DNA from: an uncultured Solirubrobacterales bacterium
GTDB lineage: Bacteria > Actinomycetota > Thermoleophilia > Solirubrobacterales > Solirubrobacteraceae
Direction: 5' to 3'
Assembly (NCBI GenBank): GCA_963834675.1
Contig: CAWICS010000009.1
Location: 224,102-288,101 of the forward strand
Length of the DNA stretch: 64,000 nucleotides
Part shown: positions 56,757-64,000 of the stretch, in pieces
How positions within the stretch are numbered: position 1 is the first letter of the stretch
How the letters are laid out: the number at the start of each line of letters is the position of its first letter
Made by a program: the position numbers and the translations under genes
Notes under the pieces: model-generated
Seen by the model: only the letters and a program-made list of their open reading frames with translations
Told to the model about the DNA's origin: nothing
Databases searched by the model: none

Positions 56757-57809
56757 GTGGGTTCTCCACAGACGCTGAGCGAAGCTGATCGGCGGATCGT
56801 GGCGGCGTGGGCGGCAGACTGCGCGGAGCGGGTACTGGGTCTGTTCGAGGCGAAGGCTCCAGGAGACGGTCGGCCCCGTGACGCGATCGCCCGGACGCGC
56901 GCCTTTGCCCGCGGCGAACTCGGCGCGGCCGGGGAGATCCGTCGCCGTTTCGTCGGCGGCGGCGCCGCGCGTGAGGTGAGCGACCCGGCCGCGGCCGCCG
57001 CGGCCAAAGCGGCCGGGCAGGCGGCAAGCGTCGCTCACATGGGCGCGCACGCGCTGGGTGCCGCCGCGTATGCCGCCAAGGCGGCTGGCCTGGCCGCGCC
57101 GAACCGGCCCGACGCTGTCGCGGAGGAGATCCGCTGGCAACTCGACCACATGTCGCCGGCGACCAGAGCCGCGCTGCGGCAACTGCCACCCGTCCGGGAG
57201 AACCGGTCTGGTCCGCTTGGGCCGGGGCTCCTCGCGTCGGGCCTCCTCGGCACGATCATCCGCGAGCTCCAGGGCGGCTTGGCGGACGGTGCTCGGCGGT
57301 CGGTCGTCCTGGTGACCGGCATGTCAGGCAGCGGAAAGTCGACAGCGCTGGCCGCGCTGAAAAGCCGCGGGCACCGCGTCGTTGACACCGACGATCCCGG
57401 TTGGATCGTCGCCGTCCATACCGACGGCGGGGCCGAGCCGCTCTGGGACATCGACCAAGTCACGGCGCTCATCGACGGCCACCGCACGGGCTGGCTCTTC
57501 ATCGCCGGGTGCGTGGCGAATCAGGGGGTCGTCTATGACCGCTTCGACGCTGTCGTACTACTGAGCGCGCCGGTCGACGTCATCCTCGATCGAGTTGCCG
57601 ACCGGGCGAACCCGTTCGGATCCACGGCGGACGACCGGTCGAAGATCGCCGCCGATCTGGAGGCGTTCGAGCCGGTGCTGCGTGCGCGCGCGGATCACGA
57701 GATCGTGACCACGGCGCCCGTCGCCGACGTCGTCGCGGCACTTGAACAGGTCGCTGCCGGTGCAGGCCGTCGAGACCCGCGTCCGTCGCGCCATGCGCAT
57801 CGCCCCTGA
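56757..57809 (+). CDS. Imm5-like helical domain fused to P-loop nucleotide kinase-like domain
   Basis: N-terminal AAWAADCAERVL..PRDAI..AGQAASVAHMGAHALGAAAY; C-terminal VLVTGMSGSGKST and VDTDD. Confidence 0.78.
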   Translation: MGSPQTLSEADRRIVAAWAADCAERVLGLFEAKAPGDGRPRDAIARTRAFARGELGAAGEIRRRFVGGGAAREVSDPAAAAAAKAAGQAASVAHMGAHALGAAAYAAKAAGLAAPNRPDAVAEEIRWQLDHMSPATRAALRQLPPVRENRSGPLGPGLLASGLLGTIIRELQGGLADGARRSVVLVTGMSGSGKSTALAALKSRGHRVVDTDDPGWIVAVHTDGGAEPLWDIDQVTALIDGHRTGWLFIAGCVANQGVVYDRFDAVVLLSAPVDVILDRVADRANPFGSTADDRSKIAADLEAFEPVLRARADHEIVTTAPVADVVAALEQVAAGAGRRDPRPSRHAHRP

Positions 57810-57815
57810 CGACGA

Positions 57816-58865
57816 CTACGTCGAAATCCCGTACACCGCCGCGGCGTTGCCGGCCATGACGGCGCGGCTCGCGTGTTCGTCCAGCTGATCGAGCAAGGCC
57901 GGCAGGCCGTCACCGTGCTCGTGGGGGTAGTCGCTGGCGTAGGCGAGGAGCGCGCCGGCATCCATCATCTCGAGCAGCTGTCCCAGCGCGTCCGCATCGT
58001 GGGGCAGGTGCGCCGGCGCTGTGGTGAATCGGAAATGCTCGCCGACGTGCTCGGACGGCAGCTGCTTGATCCACGGCACCTCGCGCCAGACCCCGCGCCA
58101 GTCCTTATCGAAGCGCCACAGCAGTGGAGGCAGCCAGGCGAACCCGCACTCCATCACGACGACCTTGAGGTCCGGAAAGCGGTTGAACACCCCCTCGCTG
58201 ACGAAGCTCAGCACCTGCGCCTGGGCGATCGGCTGGTTCGCGATGTAGTCCTCCAGGTAGGTGGTGGTGAAGCCGCTCGGGGTGGGCGCCCTGCCGGCGC
58301 GCCCCCACGCGTGCAGCCCCACGTGCAGTGAGTGCTTGCGGGCCGCTTCGAAGATGCCGTGGTTTCGCTTGTTGCCCCACGGCACGTCGCTGCGCACCGG
58401 CAGCAGCACCTGCACGAATCCAGGCTCACCGCCCACCCGCTCTATCTCGGCCACCGCGTCGTCGCCCGACAGGGTGGAGACCACCAGGCTCGCTCGCAGG
58501 CGGTCATCACGCGCCAGGAACTCCTCGCGCAACCAGTCGTTGACGGCGGCGGCGATGGCGGCCGCGTAATACGGATTGCGGTGGGTCTCAAACCCCGTCA
58601 GGCAGTTGAGCACGACCGCGCGTGGATCCGTCCGGTCGAGCACGTTCTCCTTGAGCTGGTCGTAGGTCGCCGGGACGGGCGGGCCGGCGAGCTCGCGGGC
58701 GGTGGGCGAGGCGGTTGTCGGTGCGCCCGGGGGATAGGCGAACGCCACGCCGTTGAGCCGGACTCCCGCCTCGGTGATGTACTGGCGCCAGTAGTCGCTC
58801 AGATACGGGAAGAGCGCATCGAACGTCTCGGGTGCGACGTGAACGTCGCAATCGATCGCCTGCAT
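57816..58865 (-). CDS. Amidohydrolase_2-fold protein (second of pair; possible AibH1-like subunit)
   Basis: IDCDVH, GLHAWG, YLEDY, VVMECG, FTTAP and YASDYPH; GAGG RBS before ATG 58865. Confidence 0.85.
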   Translation of the reverse strand: MQAIDCDVHVAPETFDALFPYLSDYWRQYITEAGVRLNGVAFAYPPGAPTTASPTARELAGPPVPATYDQLKENVLDRTDPRAVVLNCLTGFETHRNPYYAAAIAAAVNDWLREEFLARDDRLRASLVVSTLSGDDAVAEIERVGGEPGFVQVLLPVRSDVPWGNKRNHGIFEAARKHSLHVGLHAWGRAGRAPTPSGFTTTYLEDYIANQPIAQAQVLSFVSEGVFNRFPDLKVVVMECGFAWLPPLLWRFDKDWRGVWREVPWIKQLPSEHVGEHFRFTTAPAHLPHDADALGQLLEMMDAGALLAYASDYPHEHGDGLPALLDQLDEHASRAVMAGNAAAVYGIST

Positions 58866-58872
58866 GGCTACC

Positions 58873-59985
58873 TCACCCCCGATCGGGGCGCTCACGCGGC
58901 AGGCCGTACAGCGTCAGTGCGTTGTCGCATTGGATCGCCGCCCTCATCTCCTTGGGCATGGCGCGCGGCAACGCCTGCGTCGGCGAGTCGAAGTCCCAGT
59001 GCGGGTAGTCCGTGGCGAACAAGAGCCGGTCCGCCAGTTGCGCCTGCTCGATCGTGTGCAGCAGGTGGCGTGGCTCGGCCGGCTCTTCGATCGGCTGCGT
59101 GGTGAACCACGCGTGGTCCCGGACATACTCCGACGGCCGCCGCTTCACGCGCGGCAGGTCCTCGCGCATGAGCTCCCAGCCGGCGTCCAGCGACCAGCAC
59201 AGCGCCGCGGCCCAGGCCAGGCCGCACTCGGTGAGCACGACCCGCAGATTTGGCATGGCGTCGAACATCCCGCCGCACACCATGCTGGTCAGCTGGGCCT
59301 GCATGTTGATCCCGTTGGCGACGTGATACTCCAGGTAGAACGACGGGTAGCCGGCGCCGCGGTGATCCATGTAGCCGCCGGTGTGGAAGACCACAGGCCG
59401 CCCGTGCGCCGTGGCCGCCTCGTAGATCGGCCAATACTTGCGGCCGCCCAGCGGCTCCATCGCGCTCGCGGGCATCATTACCGCCAAGAAGCGCGGGTCG
59501 GACGCCCGGCGCTCGATCTCGGCGACGCACAGGTCCGGGTACTCGTGAGGCACGCAGATGGCCGAGCGGAACCGGTCATCGAACTCCAGCCACTTGTCGA
59601 GCTGCCAGTCGTTGATCGCCTGGTTCCACGCGGCGGCCAGGTCGGCGTCGTCGTAGCAGTCGGCGCCGCTGAGCACCTCCAGCAGCGCGTAGTCGACGCC
59701 GAACTCGTCGAGCAGCTGGGCGCGCGTCGTCTCGGGGTCGCTGCCCCAGATGTGGCCTGGCTTGTTGGGCCACGCGTCGACGCGCATGCCGGCGTTGCGC
59801 GCGCGGGGGTACCAGTCGGTGATCCGGGGCGATCGGTGGCCGTAGCGCTCCAGCCGGCGCCGCGCGCCGGCGCTCATGTACTCCGTGAGCATCGGCTCCG
59901 TCGCCTGAGCGTGGACATCGCAATCGACCAGCTTCACGGCGCGCGCCGTTACCGCTTGACCGGGCTGCGTCTCGATACCAGACAC
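58873..59985 (-). CDS. Amidohydrolase_2-fold protein (first of pair; possible AibH2-like dinuclear oxygenase)
   Basis: VDCDVH, FHTGG, YLEYH, LTECG, FTTQPIEEP and FATDYPHWDFD. Confidence 0.85.
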   Translation of the reverse strand: MSGIETQPGQAVTARAVKLVDCDVHAQATEPMLTEYMSAGARRRLERYGHRSPRITDWYPRARNAGMRVDAWPNKPGHIWGSDPETTRAQLLDEFGVDYALLEVLSGADCYDDADLAAAWNQAINDWQLDKWLEFDDRFRSAICVPHEYPDLCVAEIERRASDPRFLAVMMPASAMEPLGGRKYWPIYEAATAHGRPVVFHTGGYMDHRGAGYPSFYLEYHVANGINMQAQLTSMVCGGMFDAMPNLRVVLTECGLAWAAALCWSLDAGWELMREDLPRVKRRPSEYVRDHAWFTTQPIEEPAEPRHLLHTIEQAQLADRLLFATDYPHWDFDSPTQALPRAMPKEMRAAIQCDNALTLYGLPRERPDRG

Positions 59986-59988
59986 TGT

Positions 59989-60102
59989 CTACACCTCCAG
60001 TACGACGTAGTCGTCTTCGACCTTAGCCCCGAACGTCTCGGCTGTACAGGGGCTGCCCAAGAGCTTCACCCTCCGGTCCTCCACTCCGCAACCCGCGGTC
60101 AC
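59989..60102 (-). pseudogene. 37-codon ORF resembling the C-terminal tail of Rieske ferredoxins found in amidohydrolase clusters
   Basis: Reads VTAGCGVEDRRVKLLGSPCTAETFGAKVEDDYVVLEV*; fills the gap between the ADH stop and the amidohydrolase start; no CxH/CxxH ligands. Family match is from memory. Confidence 0.5.
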
Positions 60103-60106
60103 CCGG

Positions 60107-61225
60107 TCAGCCCTCGTGCATGATCACGCCGCGGATGTTCTTGCCGCTCAGCAAATCCTCGTAACCGCGATTCACCTCGTCGAGCGAATAGCGGTGTGTG
60201 ATCAGCTCGTCCAGCTTCAGCTGGCCCTCCCGCCACAGCCGCAACAGGCGAGGGACGTCGTAGAGCGGGTTGCACATCCCGAACACATGCCCCTGGATCC
60301 GCCGCTGCCAGCCGACCACCGAGCCGTTGGCAGCGAGCGCTATCTGCGTATCCCCGCTGCGGCCGACCGACGTGATCGTCACCTGGCCGTCCTTGCCCAC
60401 CATTTCCGTGGCGGCGCTCACCACCTCCGCGGTGAGCACGCCGATGGTCACGATGGCGTGGTCCGCCATCTGGCCCCAGGTGATGTCGTTGACTACCTGC
60501 CGCGCGCTGTCGGCGTCCTCGAACGCATGGGTGGCGCCGAACTCCATCGCCTTCTCGCGCTTGAACGCCACCGGGTCCACGACCACGACATTGGCCGCGC
60601 CGGCATAGCGGGCGCCCTGAATGGCGTTGATGCCCACGCCGCCGGCGCCGAAGATGACCACGGTGTCACCGGCCGCCACGCCCGCGGCATACACCGACGT
60701 GCCCCAGCCGGTGGGAACGCCGCAGCCGACCAGCGCCGCCACATCCAGCGGAATGTCATCCAGAATCTTGATGCACGAGAACTGGGAGATCACCGCTCTC
60801 TCCGAGAAGGTGCCAAGCGCGCAAAAGCCGCCGACATCGGCGCCGTCGTCGTCGTGGAAGGTGAAGCGGCCGCTCGCCAGCAGCCCGGTCAGCATCTCGC
60901 CCCCCAGGTCGCACAGGTTCTGCCTTCCGGTGGAGCAATACCGGCAGGCGCCGCACGCCGGGATGAAGGAGCAGACGACGTGGTCGCCGGGCTTGACGCG
61001 CGTGACGTCTTCGCCGATGGCCTCCACCATACCGGCGCCCTCGTGCCCGCCCACCATCGGCAGGCGAGCCTCGGTGTGCCCCGCCCGGACGTGCTCGTCG
61101 GAGTGACAGAGGCCCGAGGCGAAGAACTTGATCAGCACCTCCCCGGGACCCGGATCGTCCAGCTCGAGGGCCGTCACCTCCCACGGCTGACCTGCCTGGC
61201 GGATCATCGCAGCCTTGGTTCTCAT
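60107..61225 (-). CDS. Zn-dependent alcohol dehydrogenase, NDMA-dependent nicotinoprotein type (Rxyl_3153-like)
   Basis: GLCHSDEH, GGHEGAG, CGACRYCSTGRQNLC, GCGVPTGWG, GAGGVG and KLDELIT. Confidence 0.88.
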   Translation of the reverse strand: MRTKAAMIRQAGQPWEVTALELDDPGPGEVLIKFFASGLCHSDEHVRAGHTEARLPMVGGHEGAGMVEAIGEDVTRVKPGDHVVCSFIPACGACRYCSTGRQNLCDLGGEMLTGLLASGRFTFHDDDGADVGGFCALGTFSERAVISQFSCIKILDDIPLDVAALVGCGVPTGWGTSVYAAGVAAGDTVVIFGAGGVGINAIQGARYAGAANVVVVDPVAFKREKAMEFGATHAFEDADSARQVVNDITWGQMADHAIVTIGVLTAEVVSAATEMVGKDGQVTITSVGRSGDTQIALAANGSVVGWQRRIQGHVFGMCNPLYDVPRLLRLWREGQLKLDELITHRYSLDEVNRGYEDLLSGKNIRGVIMHEG

Positions 61226-61411
61226 TCCGGTGCGATCCTCCCACGTGCACCGTGAGCGTGCGCCGCGCCTGGGCGTACTTGTCGCTGAGTGCCCGGATCG
61301 CCGCCTTTTTGTGCGATCAGCGACCTGTTGGTCGGCGCCTATGTCAACGGGCCGTACCATGGCGCCATGGAGAGGAGCTGGACGCCGCGCGCGGGCGCGG
61401 GCGGGGAGCCA

Positions 61412-62083
61412 GTGGGGAACGGCACGAGCGCGCTCGCGATCTCCAACCTCGCGGTCAACTATGGCCGCGTCGCTGCCGTCCACGACGTGAGCTTCGAGGT
61501 CGCCGAGGGCGACTGCGTCGCGCTCATCGGTCCCAATGGCAACGGTAAGAGCTCCATCGTGATGGGGATCGCCGGCCTCGTGCACCGCCGCGGCCGGGTC
61601 GAGATCTTCGGCCGTGCAGCGCCCGCCGACGACGTCTCGTTCATGCCCCGCCACGGATTCACGCTCGTCCCCGAGCGCCGCCAGCTCTACCCGCAGCTGT
61701 CGGTCGCCGACAACATCGTGCTCGGCTGCTACAGCCGCATCCGCAGCCTCCGCCGCGCACGGGCATCCAAGGCCCACCGGCAGGCGCTCGAGCTGTTCCC
61801 CGAGCTCTCCGGGCGAATGGCGCAGAAGGCGGGCACCCTGTCGGGCGGCGAGCAGCAGATGGTCGCGATCGCCCGGGGTCTCGCCGCCGACCCGCGGATC
61901 CTCGCCGTCGACGAGCCATGCCTCGGACTCGCAGAGACCGTGAGCCGGCGCGTCTACGAGGCGCTTCGGCGGATCCACGAGGCGGGACGCACGCTGCTGA
62001 TCGTCGAGGAGTCCCCGACGCGGGCGCTGCAGCTCGCCACCCGCCAGATCGAGGTCCGCAACGGCGTGGTGGTGCACGCGTGA
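61412..62083 (+). CDS. Liv-type ABC ATP-binding protein (LivF-like)
   Basis: GPNGNGKSS, VPERRQLYP, LSGGEQQM and VDEP; GGGGAG RBS before GTG 61412 (alternative start ATG 61367). Confidence 0.88.
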   Translation: MGNGTSALAISNLAVNYGRVAAVHDVSFEVAEGDCVALIGPNGNGKSSIVMGIAGLVHRRGRVEIFGRAAPADDVSFMPRHGFTLVPERRQLYPQLSVADNIVLGCYSRIRSLRRARASKAHRQALELFPELSGRMAQKAGTLSGGEQQMVAIARGLAADPRILAVDEPCLGLAETVSRRVYEALRRIHEAGRTLLIVEESPTRALQLATRQIEVRNGVVVHA

Positions 62084-62964
62084 AGCTCGGCAATCTGCTC
62101 ATCTCCGGAATCGTCACCGGCTCGATCTACGCCGCGTTCGCCGCCTGCGTCGCGCTGTGGTACCGGGTGAGCAACATCCTCAACCTCGCGGTCGGCGACT
62201 TCGCGATGATCGGCGCGCTCGGCGTCGACAGCCTCGTTCGCGTCCACCACTGGAAGCTCGCACCGGCGATCGCCGCGGTGCTCGCCGTCGTTGCGGTCGG
62301 CGGCTACCTGTACGACCGGACCGTGCTCCGACTGGCGCAGGACGGGCGAACCCGTCAAGAGGGGATCGTCGTCACCTTCTTCTTCACGTTCGCGCTCTCG
62401 TTCTTCATCGAGGGGATCGCCGAGCTGCTCTACGGGACGGACGTGCACGCAGCGCCCGCAATCTGGAGTGGCCAGTCGCTCGGCCTCGGCGGCGGACTGC
62501 ACATCGACCGCGCCGGGGTGCTGGTCGTGATCTTCGCGGCGGTCTTCGGGATCGCGAGCGCGCTCGTCCTGCGCGGCACGCTTAGGGGCAAGGCGATCGA
62601 GGCGTGTGGCGAGAACTTTTTTGGCGCCCGGATTGTCGGCATCGACAACCGAAAATACCGCCGGCTGCTGTTCATAGTCTCCGCAGTGCTCGCCTGTGTG
62701 TTCGGCATCCTCGAGTCGCCGATCACCGGCTACACGTACAACTCGGGCGCGGCGCTCAGCATCACTGGATTCATCGCTGCCGCCTACGCCGGATTCCAGA
62801 AGCCGGGCAAGGCGGTCATCGCCGGCCTCGGCATCGGCATCGTGGAGGCGCTACTCGCCGGCTACGTATCCGCCAACTACGCCGACACGATCCTGTACGC
62901 GCTGCTCGCCGCGGCAGTCCTCATCCGGCCGAGCGCGATGGGCCTCGACGTCGTCCTCGAGTAG
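62080..62964 (+). CDS. Liv-type ABC permease (LivH-like)
   Basis: SGIVTGSIYA, ILNLAVGDFAMIG and GARIVGID. Confidence 0.85.
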   Translation: MKLGNLLISGIVTGSIYAAFAACVALWYRVSNILNLAVGDFAMIGALGVDSLVRVHHWKLAPAIAAVLAVVAVGGYLYDRTVLRLAQDGRTRQEGIVVTFFFTFALSFFIEGIAELLYGTDVHAAPAIWSGQSLGLGGGLHIDRAGVLVVIFAAVFGIASALVLRGTLRGKAIEACGENFFGARIVGIDNRKYRRLLFIVSAVLACVFGILESPITGYTYNSGAALSITGFIAAAYAGFQKPGKAVIAGLGIGIVEALLAGYVSANYADTILYALLAAAVLIRPSAMGLDVVLE

Positions 62965-62968
62965 CCCC

Positions 62969-64000
62969 ATGACCACGACCCCAATCACCACCACGACGAC
63001 TGGTCGCCGCCTGAGCGGCGCCCACCGCGGTCCGCTGCTGTCGACCGCGTTCGTGCTGATCGCCGGCCTCATCGTCGCCGGCGGCTCAGCCGACTCGTAC
63101 TTCGGCAGCGTCGTCATCCTTGCGCTCAGCTACGCGATCGTCACCGCCGGCATGGCCGTGCAGATCGGCTTCAGCCAGCAGGTCGTCTTCAGCCAGTCGG
63201 TGTTCATGGGTCTCGGCGCCTACGGCGTCGCGGTGCTCAACGCAAACGTCGGCTGGCCCAGCCTGCTCGCGCTCGTCGCCATCACGATCGCCAGCGGCGG
63301 CGTTGCCTGGATGATCGGCAAGGCCGTCTCCCGCGCCTCCGGGCTTGCCCTCGCGGTGGCGACGCTCATGTTCCCGTTTATCGCAGTCGGCTACCTCTCC
63401 TACGCGACGTGGCTCGGCGGCACGACCGGCCTTCCGCTCACCGGCACGCTGTGGCCGGGCGGGTCCGCGACCGCCAACGGAATCCTCACCGTCGTCATCG
63501 TCGCGGCCGTCGTGTTCGCCACGACGCGTCTGATCGCCTCCGACATCGGCCTCGAGATGTACGCGCTCGGCGTCAGCGAGAACACCGCACAGGCGATGGG
63601 GGTGCGCACCTCGCGCCGCCGCCTTGAACTGTTCATTCTCGGCTCGGTACTGGCCACGCTCGGCGGGGCCGTGTACGCCGGGACCCAGCTGTTCGTGCCG
63701 CCCACTCTCGTGCAGGCGACCGCCGAACTGTCGCTGCTCATCATGCTGTTCGTCGGGGGCCGACGCAGCGTCCTGGGAGCCGTGCTCGGCGCGGTCGGGA
63801 TCCAGTACGTCACGGGGATCTCGAACTGGATCAGTATCCACATCCTGCTCATCGAGGGCGCGCTCATCACGATCGTGCTGCTCATCGAGCCGGACGGCAC
63901 CGCCGCCATCGTGAGCCGCCTGTGGCGCCGTGCCGCGCCGCGGCTGCCGTTCGCCGGGCTGGCCATAACCGACGGAGCGCTCGCGCCGCCTCCGGTACTC
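62969..64000 (+). CDS. Liv-type ABC permease (LivM-like), runs off window
   Basis: My translation from ATG 62969 (not in the ORF track): LSYAIVTAGMAVQIGFSQQVVFSQSVFMGLGAY..GLALAVATL..GGTTG..SDIGLE. Confidence 0.82.
   Translation, partial: MTTTPITTTTTGRRLSGAHRGPLLSTAFVLIAGLIVAGGSADSYFGSVVILALSYAIVTAGMAVQIGFSQQVVFSQSVFMGLGAYGVAVLNANVGWPSLLALVAITIASGGVAWMIGKAVSRASGLALAVATLMFPFIAVGYLSYATWLGGTTGLPLTGTLWPGGSATANGILTVVIVAAVVFATTRLIASDIGLEMYALGVSENTAQAMGVRTSRRRLELFILGSVLATLGGAVYAGTQLFVPPTLVQATAELSLLIMLFVGGRRSVLGAVLGAVGIQYVTGISNWISIHILLIEGALITIVLLIEPDGTAAIVSRLWRRAAPRLPFAGLAITDGALAPPPVL

Follow-up and report, generated by a model that had tools for sequence, protein, structure and literature searches.

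The 64,000-nucleotide stretch of DNA analyzed here, termed the window, comprises positions 224102-288101 of contig C9 in genome G000 (5.85 Mb in nine contigs), whose nearest relatives are metagenome-assembled genomes (MAGs) of the order Solirubrobacterales. Near the end of the window, four minus-strand reading frames follow one another head to tail: a Zn-dependent alcohol dehydrogenase (ADH), a 37-codon open reading frame (ORF), and two paralogous proteins of the amidohydrolase fold, termed ARO-A and ARO-B. We present evidence that the last two are subunits of a putative dinuclear oxygenase whose neighboring ferredoxin gene has decayed. An initial annotation made from the window sequence had described an operon of an ADH, a Rieske-tail-like ORF, and two amidohydrolase-fold paralogs, divergent from a Liv-type importer, and all four components were recovered in this arrangement. 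The window was compared with homologous loci and other sequence stretches, which are designated by L numbers. The closest of these, L002, resides in a sister genome, G001.

ARO-A (58873..59985, minus strand) has 370 amino acids, and ARO-B (57816..58865, minus strand) has 349; the two proteins are 32% identical to each other. The ORF of ARO-B spans 57816-58895 on the minus strand. Its true start is likely the ATG at 58865, which leaves 7 nt between this codon and the ARO-A stop, because the frame of the L002 ortholog opens only at this position ("MQTIDCDVH"). Pfam assigns both proteins only to Amidohydro_2 (PF04909; E values of 4e-41 for ARO-A and 8e-31 for ARO-B), and NCBIfam holds no specific model for either. 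Such assignments would fit ordinary hydrolytic or decarboxylating amidohydrolases of the LigI, LigW, or ACMSD kind, with a mononuclear Zn or Mn site. However, the comparisons that follow refute this reading at the level of both sequence and fold, and we accord it next to no probability.

When all PDB sequences were searched with phmmer, the best match of ARO-A was AibH2 (6m1w_B/8ful_B; E value 3e-82, 42% identity), followed by 8SM7, SfbO (8SM6), and 8SM9 (7e-69 to 1e-51), AibH1 (6e-45), and 8SM8 (1e-41). The best match of ARO-B was AibH1 (6m1w_A/8ful_A; E value 1e-60, 35% identity). ARO-A scores 280 bits with AibH2 versus 157 with AibH1, and ARO-B scores 209 bits with AibH1 versus 164 with AibH2. 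ARO-B is nearly as close to SfbO (208 bits), so its orthology to AibH1 rests mainly on its motif and on its pairing. LigW, ACMSD, and γ-resorcylate decarboxylase reach E values of only 1e-13 to 1e-4 (LigW and ACMSD, 1e-8 to 1e-13), and AibH2 and AibH1 are better by 50-70 orders of magnitude.

Structural models agree with this assignment. AlphaFold (AF2) models of ARO-A and ARO-B have predicted local distance difference test (pLDDT) scores of 85.7 and 85.2, respectively. The top seven Foldseek matches of the ARO-A model are AibH2 chains, with template modeling (TM) scores of 0.85-0.86, and AibH1 chains are the best matches of the ARO-B model (TM 0.90-0.91). The decarboxylases attain TM scores of only 0.63-0.71, so that AibH2 and AibH1 are better by ~0.2 TM and by 20 and 16 orders of magnitude, respectively, in Foldseek. 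Clustering with LigI, LigW, or ACMSD, which the initial annotation had named as the outcome that would speak against its proposal of an AibH1H2-type dinuclear oxygenase pair, was therefore not observed.

The name "amidohydrolase-related dinuclear oxygenases" (AROs) was introduced in 2024, with ~3,300 candidates mined via their Rieske-ferredoxin neighbors (PMC10811679). The superfamily was enlarged in 2026 to ~17,000 sequences. Its defining motifs, D-x-H (N-terminal) and D-x-P-H-x-[D/E] (C-terminal), are absent from characterized hydrolases and decarboxylases (PMC13154177). ARO-A carries both motifs (D23-V24-H25 within DCDVH, and D326-Y-P-H329-W-D331), which is a further argument against an ordinary amidohydrolase. 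ARO-B carries the first (D7-V8-H9, likewise within DCDVH) and lacks the second, and thus ARO-A alone fits the definition of a dinuclear ARO. The proposal that the metal motif is present in both paralogs accordingly holds for its DCDVH part and fails for the complete C-terminal part, which is confined to ARO-A.

Ligand positions were mapped from the published ligands of AibH1 and AibH2 (PMC7782822). All six AibH2 ligands are conserved in ARO-A (D23, H25, H201, E253, D326, and H329), as is the second-sphere residue D331; D23 and H25 align with D25 and H27 of AibH2, and H201 and E253 with H211 and E265. In ARO-B, residues D7, H9, H185, E239, and D312 correspond to the five site-0 ligands of AibH1, with D7 and H9 aligned to D24 and H26. 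The DYPHEH segment of ARO-B has a His where AibH2 has Asp342, and AibH1 has the same substitution (DYPHKH). The comparison of structures and metal ligands that had been proposed at the outset thus favors the AibH2 type for ARO-A, and PtmU3 proved to be distant.

We surveyed 80 homologous loci, which span Actinomycetota, Chloroflexota, Alphaproteobacteria, Poribacteria, and other phyla. Pairs of α and α' subunits are the rule, and the acidic motif residue is missing in the partner at 57 of the 59 loci with a readable motif (replaced by H at 40, Q at 16, and T at one). In this survey, DYPHWDFD was among the search patterns of the scan that collected the loci, and it biases the ARO-A column. The D7-V8-H9 segment of ARO-B is invariant in homologs, as are the ARO-A ligands in 30 homologs. 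The coupling of orthologs to a Rieske ferredoxin, described below, is constant at the close loci and is also difficult to reconcile with an ordinary amidohydrolase.

Taken together, sequence and modeled fold support the view that ARO-A and ARO-B are dinuclear oxygenase subunits of the AibH1H2 type, rather than hydrolases or decarboxylases. ARO-A is predicted to be the AibH2-like catalytic (α) subunit, and ARO-B the AibH1-like noncatalytic (α') subunit. In annotation, both "amidohydrolases" are better called putative dinuclear oxygenase subunits (α, α').

Low-potential, Mn-dependent AROs have a hydrophobic residue at position γ1, a hydrophilic residue at γ2, and an aromatic residue at γ4 (PMC13154177, Table 1), and γ5 is a proposed ferredoxin-interface position (PMC13154177). 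When these criteria are applied to the ARO-A motifs, γ1 is V24 (hydrophobic), γ4 is W330 (aromatic), and γ5 is F332. The residue at γ2, assigned by alignment and by a strand boundary of the model, would be E103 (hydrophilic) at the end of β-2, aligned with a Thr of SfbO and a Gln of AibH2. ARO-A is predicted on this basis to belong to the low-potential, Mn-preferring (Mn/Fe-type), Rieske-dependent class of AROs.

One further ortholog of ARO-A, found in a short-read Solirubrobacteraceae MAG (L003:7875-9116), is 78% identical and sister to the clade formed by the window and L002 proteins. It lies directly after a GGDEF/EAL gene, and neither a Rieske gene nor an α' partner was detected nearby.

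The 37-codon ORF between the ADH and ARO-A (59989..60102, minus strand; VTAGCGVEDRRVKLLGSPCTAETFGAKVEDDYVVLEV, followed by a stop codon) is the 3' remnant of a gene for a Rieske [2Fe-2S] ferredoxin. L002 has the same gene order, with an intact 147-amino-acid Rieske gene (CPH...CPWH) between the ADH and ARO-A genes (L002:7552-7995). The short ORF aligns base for base with the last ~110 nt of this gene. The Rieske likeness noticed in the initial annotation is thus not due to chance. However, the ORF is a dead remnant and no working part: 334 bp are gone and the remainder is decaying, as detailed below. The missing segment extends from just after the ADH stop codon to approximately codon 108 of the Rieske gene, and the assembly joins the ADH stop directly to CCGGGTGACCGCGG at the deletion junction. 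A 1-nt indel is present in the remainder. The remnant of ~31-37 codons retains none of the Cys and His ligands of the cluster. Its last 12 codons are nearly unchanged, and these contain the GGAGG ribosome-binding site of ARO-A.

Wherever the sequence of a close orthologous locus covers this side, an intact Rieske gene lies directly upstream of ARO-A (L002, L004-L011, L014, and L015). The aib order, H1-H2-Rieske, is seen at loci that are more distant. ARO-associated Rieske ferredoxins (L002-L011 and L017-L070) share a conserved C-terminal extension beyond the cluster domain, (V)PGPY(V)AETFxVxVEDxYVV, and it is this part that survives as the stub (window 59992-60060).

The pattern of substitutions differs between the stub and the genes that surround it. 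The 31 retained codons differ from L002 at 10 positions, 77 of their 93 nt are identical, and the nonsynonymous rate (dN) is 0.20, with a ratio to the synonymous rate (dN/dS) of 1.1. The flanking genes have dN values of only 0.02-0.04 relative to L002. At a dS of ~0.28, dN/dS is 0.093 for ARO-A, whose product is 95% identical to its L002 ortholog over its full length (96% in the best tblastn segment), and 0.154 for ARO-B; these pairwise ratios mix the two lineages. When changes were polarized with outgroups, the window branch was found to carry at least six replacements in the 31 codons of the stub, versus 4 in the 370 codons of ARO-A and 7 in the 349 codons of ARO-B (Fisher p = 2e-5 and 2e-4), although such branch-specific counts are small. 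The window branch is not accelerated relative to L002. This pattern argues for neutral decay of the stub, for a genuine deletion that did not occur recently, and for purifying selection on the oxygenase genes ever since. The possibility that the short ORF encodes a micro-protein or a Rieske subunit in split form was rejected, given the absence of Cys and His ligands, its neutral evolution, and the intact gene in the sister genome. We suggest that the ORF be marked as a pseudogene remnant.

The gap of 334 bp could also be an assembly or consensus error that hides an intact Rieske gene. The genome is a nine-contig assembly and probably a MAG, and related assemblies show errors of the frameshift type. 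Nevertheless, a collapse would not explain the raised substitution rate in the 93 nt that were retained, and no repeat able to cause one was found at the junction. A mirror-image stub elsewhere in the genome, described in the next paragraph, shows the same kind of decay. We consider an error of this sort very improbable.

The genome carries an intact paralog of the lost ferredoxin on contig C7 (G000:C7:457924-458358). Its product shares 68-69% identity with the L002 Rieske protein and has identical cluster-binding loops (CPHQGGPLC and CPWHGWEYDL). The gene is under purifying selection (ω of 0.07-0.14), shows no branch lengthening, and groups with support of 98/97 within a clade of ferredoxins that adjoin ARO pairs in related organisms. 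The local gene order is methyltransferase, LysM protein, ilvC, serC, serA, major facilitator superfamily (MFS) transporter, Rieske, and GGDEF/EAL. Five related genomes (L005-L009) have the same upstream context, and in these ARO-A and ARO-B follow the Rieske gene; in L004, which lies at a contig end, nothing but the downstream half is visible. On C7 of G000, only a 41-codon N-terminal ARO-A stub follows the Rieske gene (VELVDCNVHAQATEPML), in which the D-x-H motif is mutated to NVH.

In the interval G000:C7:456900-458400 (L082:7900-9374), the ARO-A stub is followed by a short fragment that resembles the C-terminus of the neighboring GGDEF/EAL protein. The GGDEF/EAL gene itself (L082:6202-7904) is present in two overlapping pieces of 238 and 334 amino acids, compared with ~690 amino acids in relatives, which reflects either a frameshift or an assembly error.

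The origin of the window stub can be judged from its residues, of which 21 of 31 match the L002-type Rieske tail and 12 of 31 match the C7 gene. Because the stub is L002-like and not C7-like, it appears that two paralogous or xenologous modules once co-existed in this lineage, of which one kept its ferredoxin and the other its oxygenase. We also considered whether the ARO pair had simply moved from C7 to C9, and rejected this on the basis of the same match counts and because C7 keeps an ARO-A stub of its own. The sister genome G001 has the ADH-linked module only, in complete form, and both the Rieske gene and the ARO genes are absent from its MFS locus. The situation in G000 therefore looks like a reciprocal loss. 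The distinctive result of our analysis is evolutionary, namely this apparent reciprocal decay of two modules, which has left a split ferredoxin-oxygenase system.

In functional terms, the simplest interpretation is that ARO-A is now probably served in trans by the C7 ferredoxin. A different view is that the oxygenase operon is an inactivated relic, whose electron supply was cut by the deletion of the cognate Rieske gene and whose ARO genes have not yet decayed. Such a view gains from the report that AibH1H2 is inactive in vivo without its Rieske protein, AibG, or its reductase (PMC7782822), from the retention of an intact Rieske gene beside ARO-A at every close orthologous locus, and from the decay of the second module, with its mutated ARO-A stub. 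However, a relic does not account for the contrast between the stub and the ARO genes over the same branch. The ARO genes contain no frameshifts or stop codons, every metal ligand is intact, and a conserved and selected Rieske paralog is available in trans. We regard inactivation as unlikely, though it deserves to be taken seriously.

The first gene of the operon (60107..61222, minus strand) encodes the Zn-dependent ADH, with the Pfam domains ADH_N and ADH_zinc_N. It belongs to TIGR03989, a mycofactocin-associated family of ADHs that depend on N,N-dimethyl-4-nitrosoaniline (NDMA), and scores 510.3 bits with this NCBIfam model (cut-off 440). The protein is 95% identical to its L002 ortholog, with a dN/dS of 0.083. 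This clade has been reported only in mycofactocin producers (Haft 2011, PMC3023750), and G000 encodes both mftC (C4:899357-900364; 651 bits versus a cut-off of 265) and mftA, whose product has the C-terminus IDGMCGVY. The suspected link of the ADH to mycofactocin is thus borne out by the genome. Two TIGR03989-like paralogs, 57-58% identical to the window ADH, flank the mft cluster on C4. The window copy is far from the mft cluster and lies inside a cassette with an oxygenase and an importer.

The mycofactocin cluster (G000:C4:886000-905500; L096) includes mftA, mftB/C, a creatininase-type mftE, and an SDR (short-chain dehydrogenase/reductase) gene. It is also adjoined by an aldehyde dehydrogenase, a luciferase-like gene, and an amidohydrolase_2 gene of the HxH type, which is not an ARO. 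The last (L096:4098-5240) was examined as a candidate second ARO and rejected, as its N-terminus is of the HxH type ("DMHAH") and it has no detectable similarity to ARO-A.

The presence of mycofactocin genes, together with an ADH of the mycofactocin-dependent type, raises the question of whether a working hydroxylase draws its electrons from a donor other than the C7 Rieske protein, either another ferredoxin or a mycofactocin pool charged by the co-encoded ADH. Seven other Rieske-domain genes are present in the genome besides the C7 paralog, and many high-potential AROs function without a Rieske partner (PMC13154177). ARO-A, in contrast, has the signature of low-potential AROs with a Rieske partner, namely Trp at γ4 and Phe at γ5. 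In the sister cassette, moreover, the ADH and the Rieske gene occur together, which implies that the ADH is no substitute for a ferredoxin there. We know of no ARO that uses mycofactocin. A donor other than the C7 protein thus seems improbable to us. A hydroxylase free of any Rieske protein, reduced through a mycofactocin pool that the TIGR03989 ADH charges as it oxidizes the hydroxylated product, we consider highly improbable. If true, the latter arrangement would be a redox loop that funds itself in part, and it would connect mycofactocin with an oxygenase for the first time.

The importer operon faces the oxygenase operon on the plus strand. Its first gene encodes a LivF-type ABC ATPase (approximately 61367..62083; Pfam ABC_tran, E value 1.4e-24), 92.5% identical in amino acid sequence to its L002 counterpart; its start is uncertain, as the ORF opens at 61289. 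A LivH-type permease follows (62080..62964; BPD_transp_2, E value 7e-22), whose GTG start at 62080 overlaps the LivF stop codon. The next frame (62969..64882) continues past the window end at 64000 and is an in-frame fusion of a LivM permease (BPD_transp_2) and a LivG ATPase (ABC_tran, in L001:1-882). This single frame of 638 amino acids has an equivalent fusion of 637 amino acids in L002. The extension of the contig also revealed, after the LivM-LivG gene, a lipoprotein binding protein of the Peripla_BP_6 family (approximately L001:900-2129; E value 1e-28).

The two divergent operons form a cassette of 8.9 kb. G000 and G001 share exactly the segment from 57813 to 66190 in window numbering (window 57813-64000 plus L001:1-2190; L002:1319-10175), with ~92% nucleotide identity. 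The flanks of this block are unrelated, and the cassette sites are non-syntenic in both genomes. Its edges are the ARO-B stop codon and a terminator hairpin after the binding-protein gene. Within the cassette, dS is 0.18-0.28, versus 0.49-0.56 for serA and the MFS gene in the same two genomes, which hints that the cassette was exchanged laterally after the G000 and G001 lineages split. Neither insertion-sequence ends nor target-site duplications were found at the cassette edges. A scan of positions 57500-61500 for promoters and terminators returned nothing, a result that is uninformative in an actinobacterium of 69% G+C. The link between importer and oxygenase that had been surmised from their adjacency finds its counterpart in this joint movement. 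That the two operons travel jointly is the strongest evidence so far for a single functional unit of importer, ADH, ferredoxin, and oxygenase.

Two genes outside the shared cassette were also noted. A gene at window positions 56757-57809 on the plus strand, which converges on ARO-B, encodes an Imm5-like putative immunity domain fused to a P-loop NTPase of the AAA/nSTAND-like type. Just beyond the other edge (L001:2301-3464, minus strand), a 387-amino-acid MetE-like protein consists of the Meth_synt_2 catalytic domain only and is one of eight paralogs in the genome (26-46% identity).

On balance, we think it rather probable that the cassette is a functional catabolic unit that has lost its own Rieske gene and most likely receives electrons in trans from the C7 Rieske protein, as purifying selection still acts on the oxygenase genes. 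In this scheme, a small solute would be imported by the Liv-type ABC system and its binding protein. ARO-A, as the catalytic two-metal subunit, and ARO-B, as a single-metal helper, presumably pair as a heteromer that would hydroxylate a C-H bond of the solute by using O2 and two electrons. The electrons would be relayed by a Rieske ferredoxin, now from the C7 gene, and the resulting alcohol would then be oxidized by the nicotinoprotein ADH. The minus-strand genes are presumably transcribed as one operon. The cassette at first carried a Rieske gene of its own between the ADH and ARO-A, as in the sister genome, and 334 bp of this gene were later deleted in G000.

Several observations weigh against this scheme. 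The dependence of AibH1H2 on its Rieske protein and reductase means that loss of the ferredoxin in cis could amount to loss of function. The C7 copy shares only 68-69% identity with the L002 ortholog of the lost partner, and the evidence for selection has the limits given above for pairwise ratios and small counts. The search for a ferredoxin reductase was negative both for the cassette and for the 18 kb downstream of it. Among three PF00175 genes in the genome (on C1, C7, and C8), none is located by the cassette or the C7 Rieske gene; genes of the PF07992 type were not searched. The cassette also contains no regulator. Thus, the extension of the contig that the initial annotation had called for produced the expected binding protein, and neither a regulator nor a reductase in the cassette. 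The binding protein itself gives no clue to the substrate, as its only PDB matches, 4f06 (E value 1e-9) and 4evs (E value 3e-8), are weak and too distant to suggest a ligand.

Two uses of the locus may be envisioned. A compact cassette in which binding protein, importer, ADH, and hydroxylase move as a unit between genomes offers a handle for substrate discovery. The locus also represents a natural experiment, in which an ARO of the Rieske-dependent type has lost its ferredoxin in cis while its genes remain under selection, and which could be used to test the specificity of ARO-ferredoxin pairing.

The initial annotation is partly supported by these findings. It was right on the enzyme class and the type of ADH, and it overstates novelty in presenting a candidate new system and a pairing that had not been described. 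AibH1H2-type heteromers with Rieske partners were already published (PMC10811679, PMC13154177), and ARO-A and ARO-B are best viewed, from their sequences, as an uncharacterized member of that family, the picture of which they leave unchanged. Nor is the logic of hydroxylation followed by an ADH new, as it already occurs in the aib pathway, where hydroxylation by AibH1H2 precedes alcohol dehydrogenation by AibD1 (PMC7782822).

Among characterized AROs, the high-potential diiron enzymes PtmU3 and DitZ (6OMP, 8UYR) share the fold and the dinuclear site with its six ligands. They are distant from the window proteins (E values of 1e-11 to 1e-20; TM 0.71-0.77) and, unlike ARO-A, have a hydrophilic γ1, no Rieske partner, and large terpenoid substrates. 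SfbO, D3EI84, W7L2Y2, and B6JH23 (8SM6-8SM9; PMC10811679, PMC13154177), orphan AROs of the low-potential (Mn-type) class that were discovered by mining Rieske neighbors, are closer (phmmer E values of 7e-69 to 1e-42; TM 0.84-0.85). These belong to the same superfamily and share the ligand motifs, a hydrophobic γ1, aromatic residues at γ4 and γ5, and an association with Rieske proteins. However, they are homomeric, whereas the window enzyme is an α/α' pair of the AibH type.

The closest parallel is AibH1H2/AibG/AibF of Rhodococcus wratislaviensis C31-06 (6M1W, 8FUL-8FUO; PMC7782822, PMC10401708). Both systems have two adjacent PF04909 paralogs, with the same division into a full dinuclear site in ARO-A and AibH2 and a mononuclear site plus His in ARO-B and AibH1. 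The ancestral partner is likewise a Rieske ferredoxin, and in both clusters the hydroxylase is accompanied by a transporter and an alcohol dehydrogenase. The gene order differs, being Rieske-H2-H1 here and H1-H2-Rieske-reductase in aib, and in the window the Rieske gene is deleted and no AibF-type reductase is present. None of an aldehyde dehydrogenase, an SHMT-like decarboxylase, an alanine dehydrogenase, or an amino-acid permease (the AibE, AibC, AibA, and AibT types) was found around the hydroxylase. Because these other aib genes are missing from the cassette, its substrate is probably not Aib. The proposed sequence of hydroxylation and then alcohol oxidation nevertheless mirrors the aib pathway, with different components at two steps. 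AibD1 is an NAD-dependent homolog of 3-hydroxyisobutyrate dehydrogenase, whereas the window ADH is the Zn-dependent TIGR03989 type; and the aib importer is an amino-acid permease, whereas the window has a Liv-type ABC system. Thus, the novelty is one of detail and is limited to the combination of an AibH1H2-type oxygenase with a mycofactocin-type ADH and a Liv importer. No described case of a TIGR03989 ADH clustered with an ARO was found in the literature. The cassette provides a first candidate case of a mycofactocin-type dehydrogenase acting downstream of an ARO.

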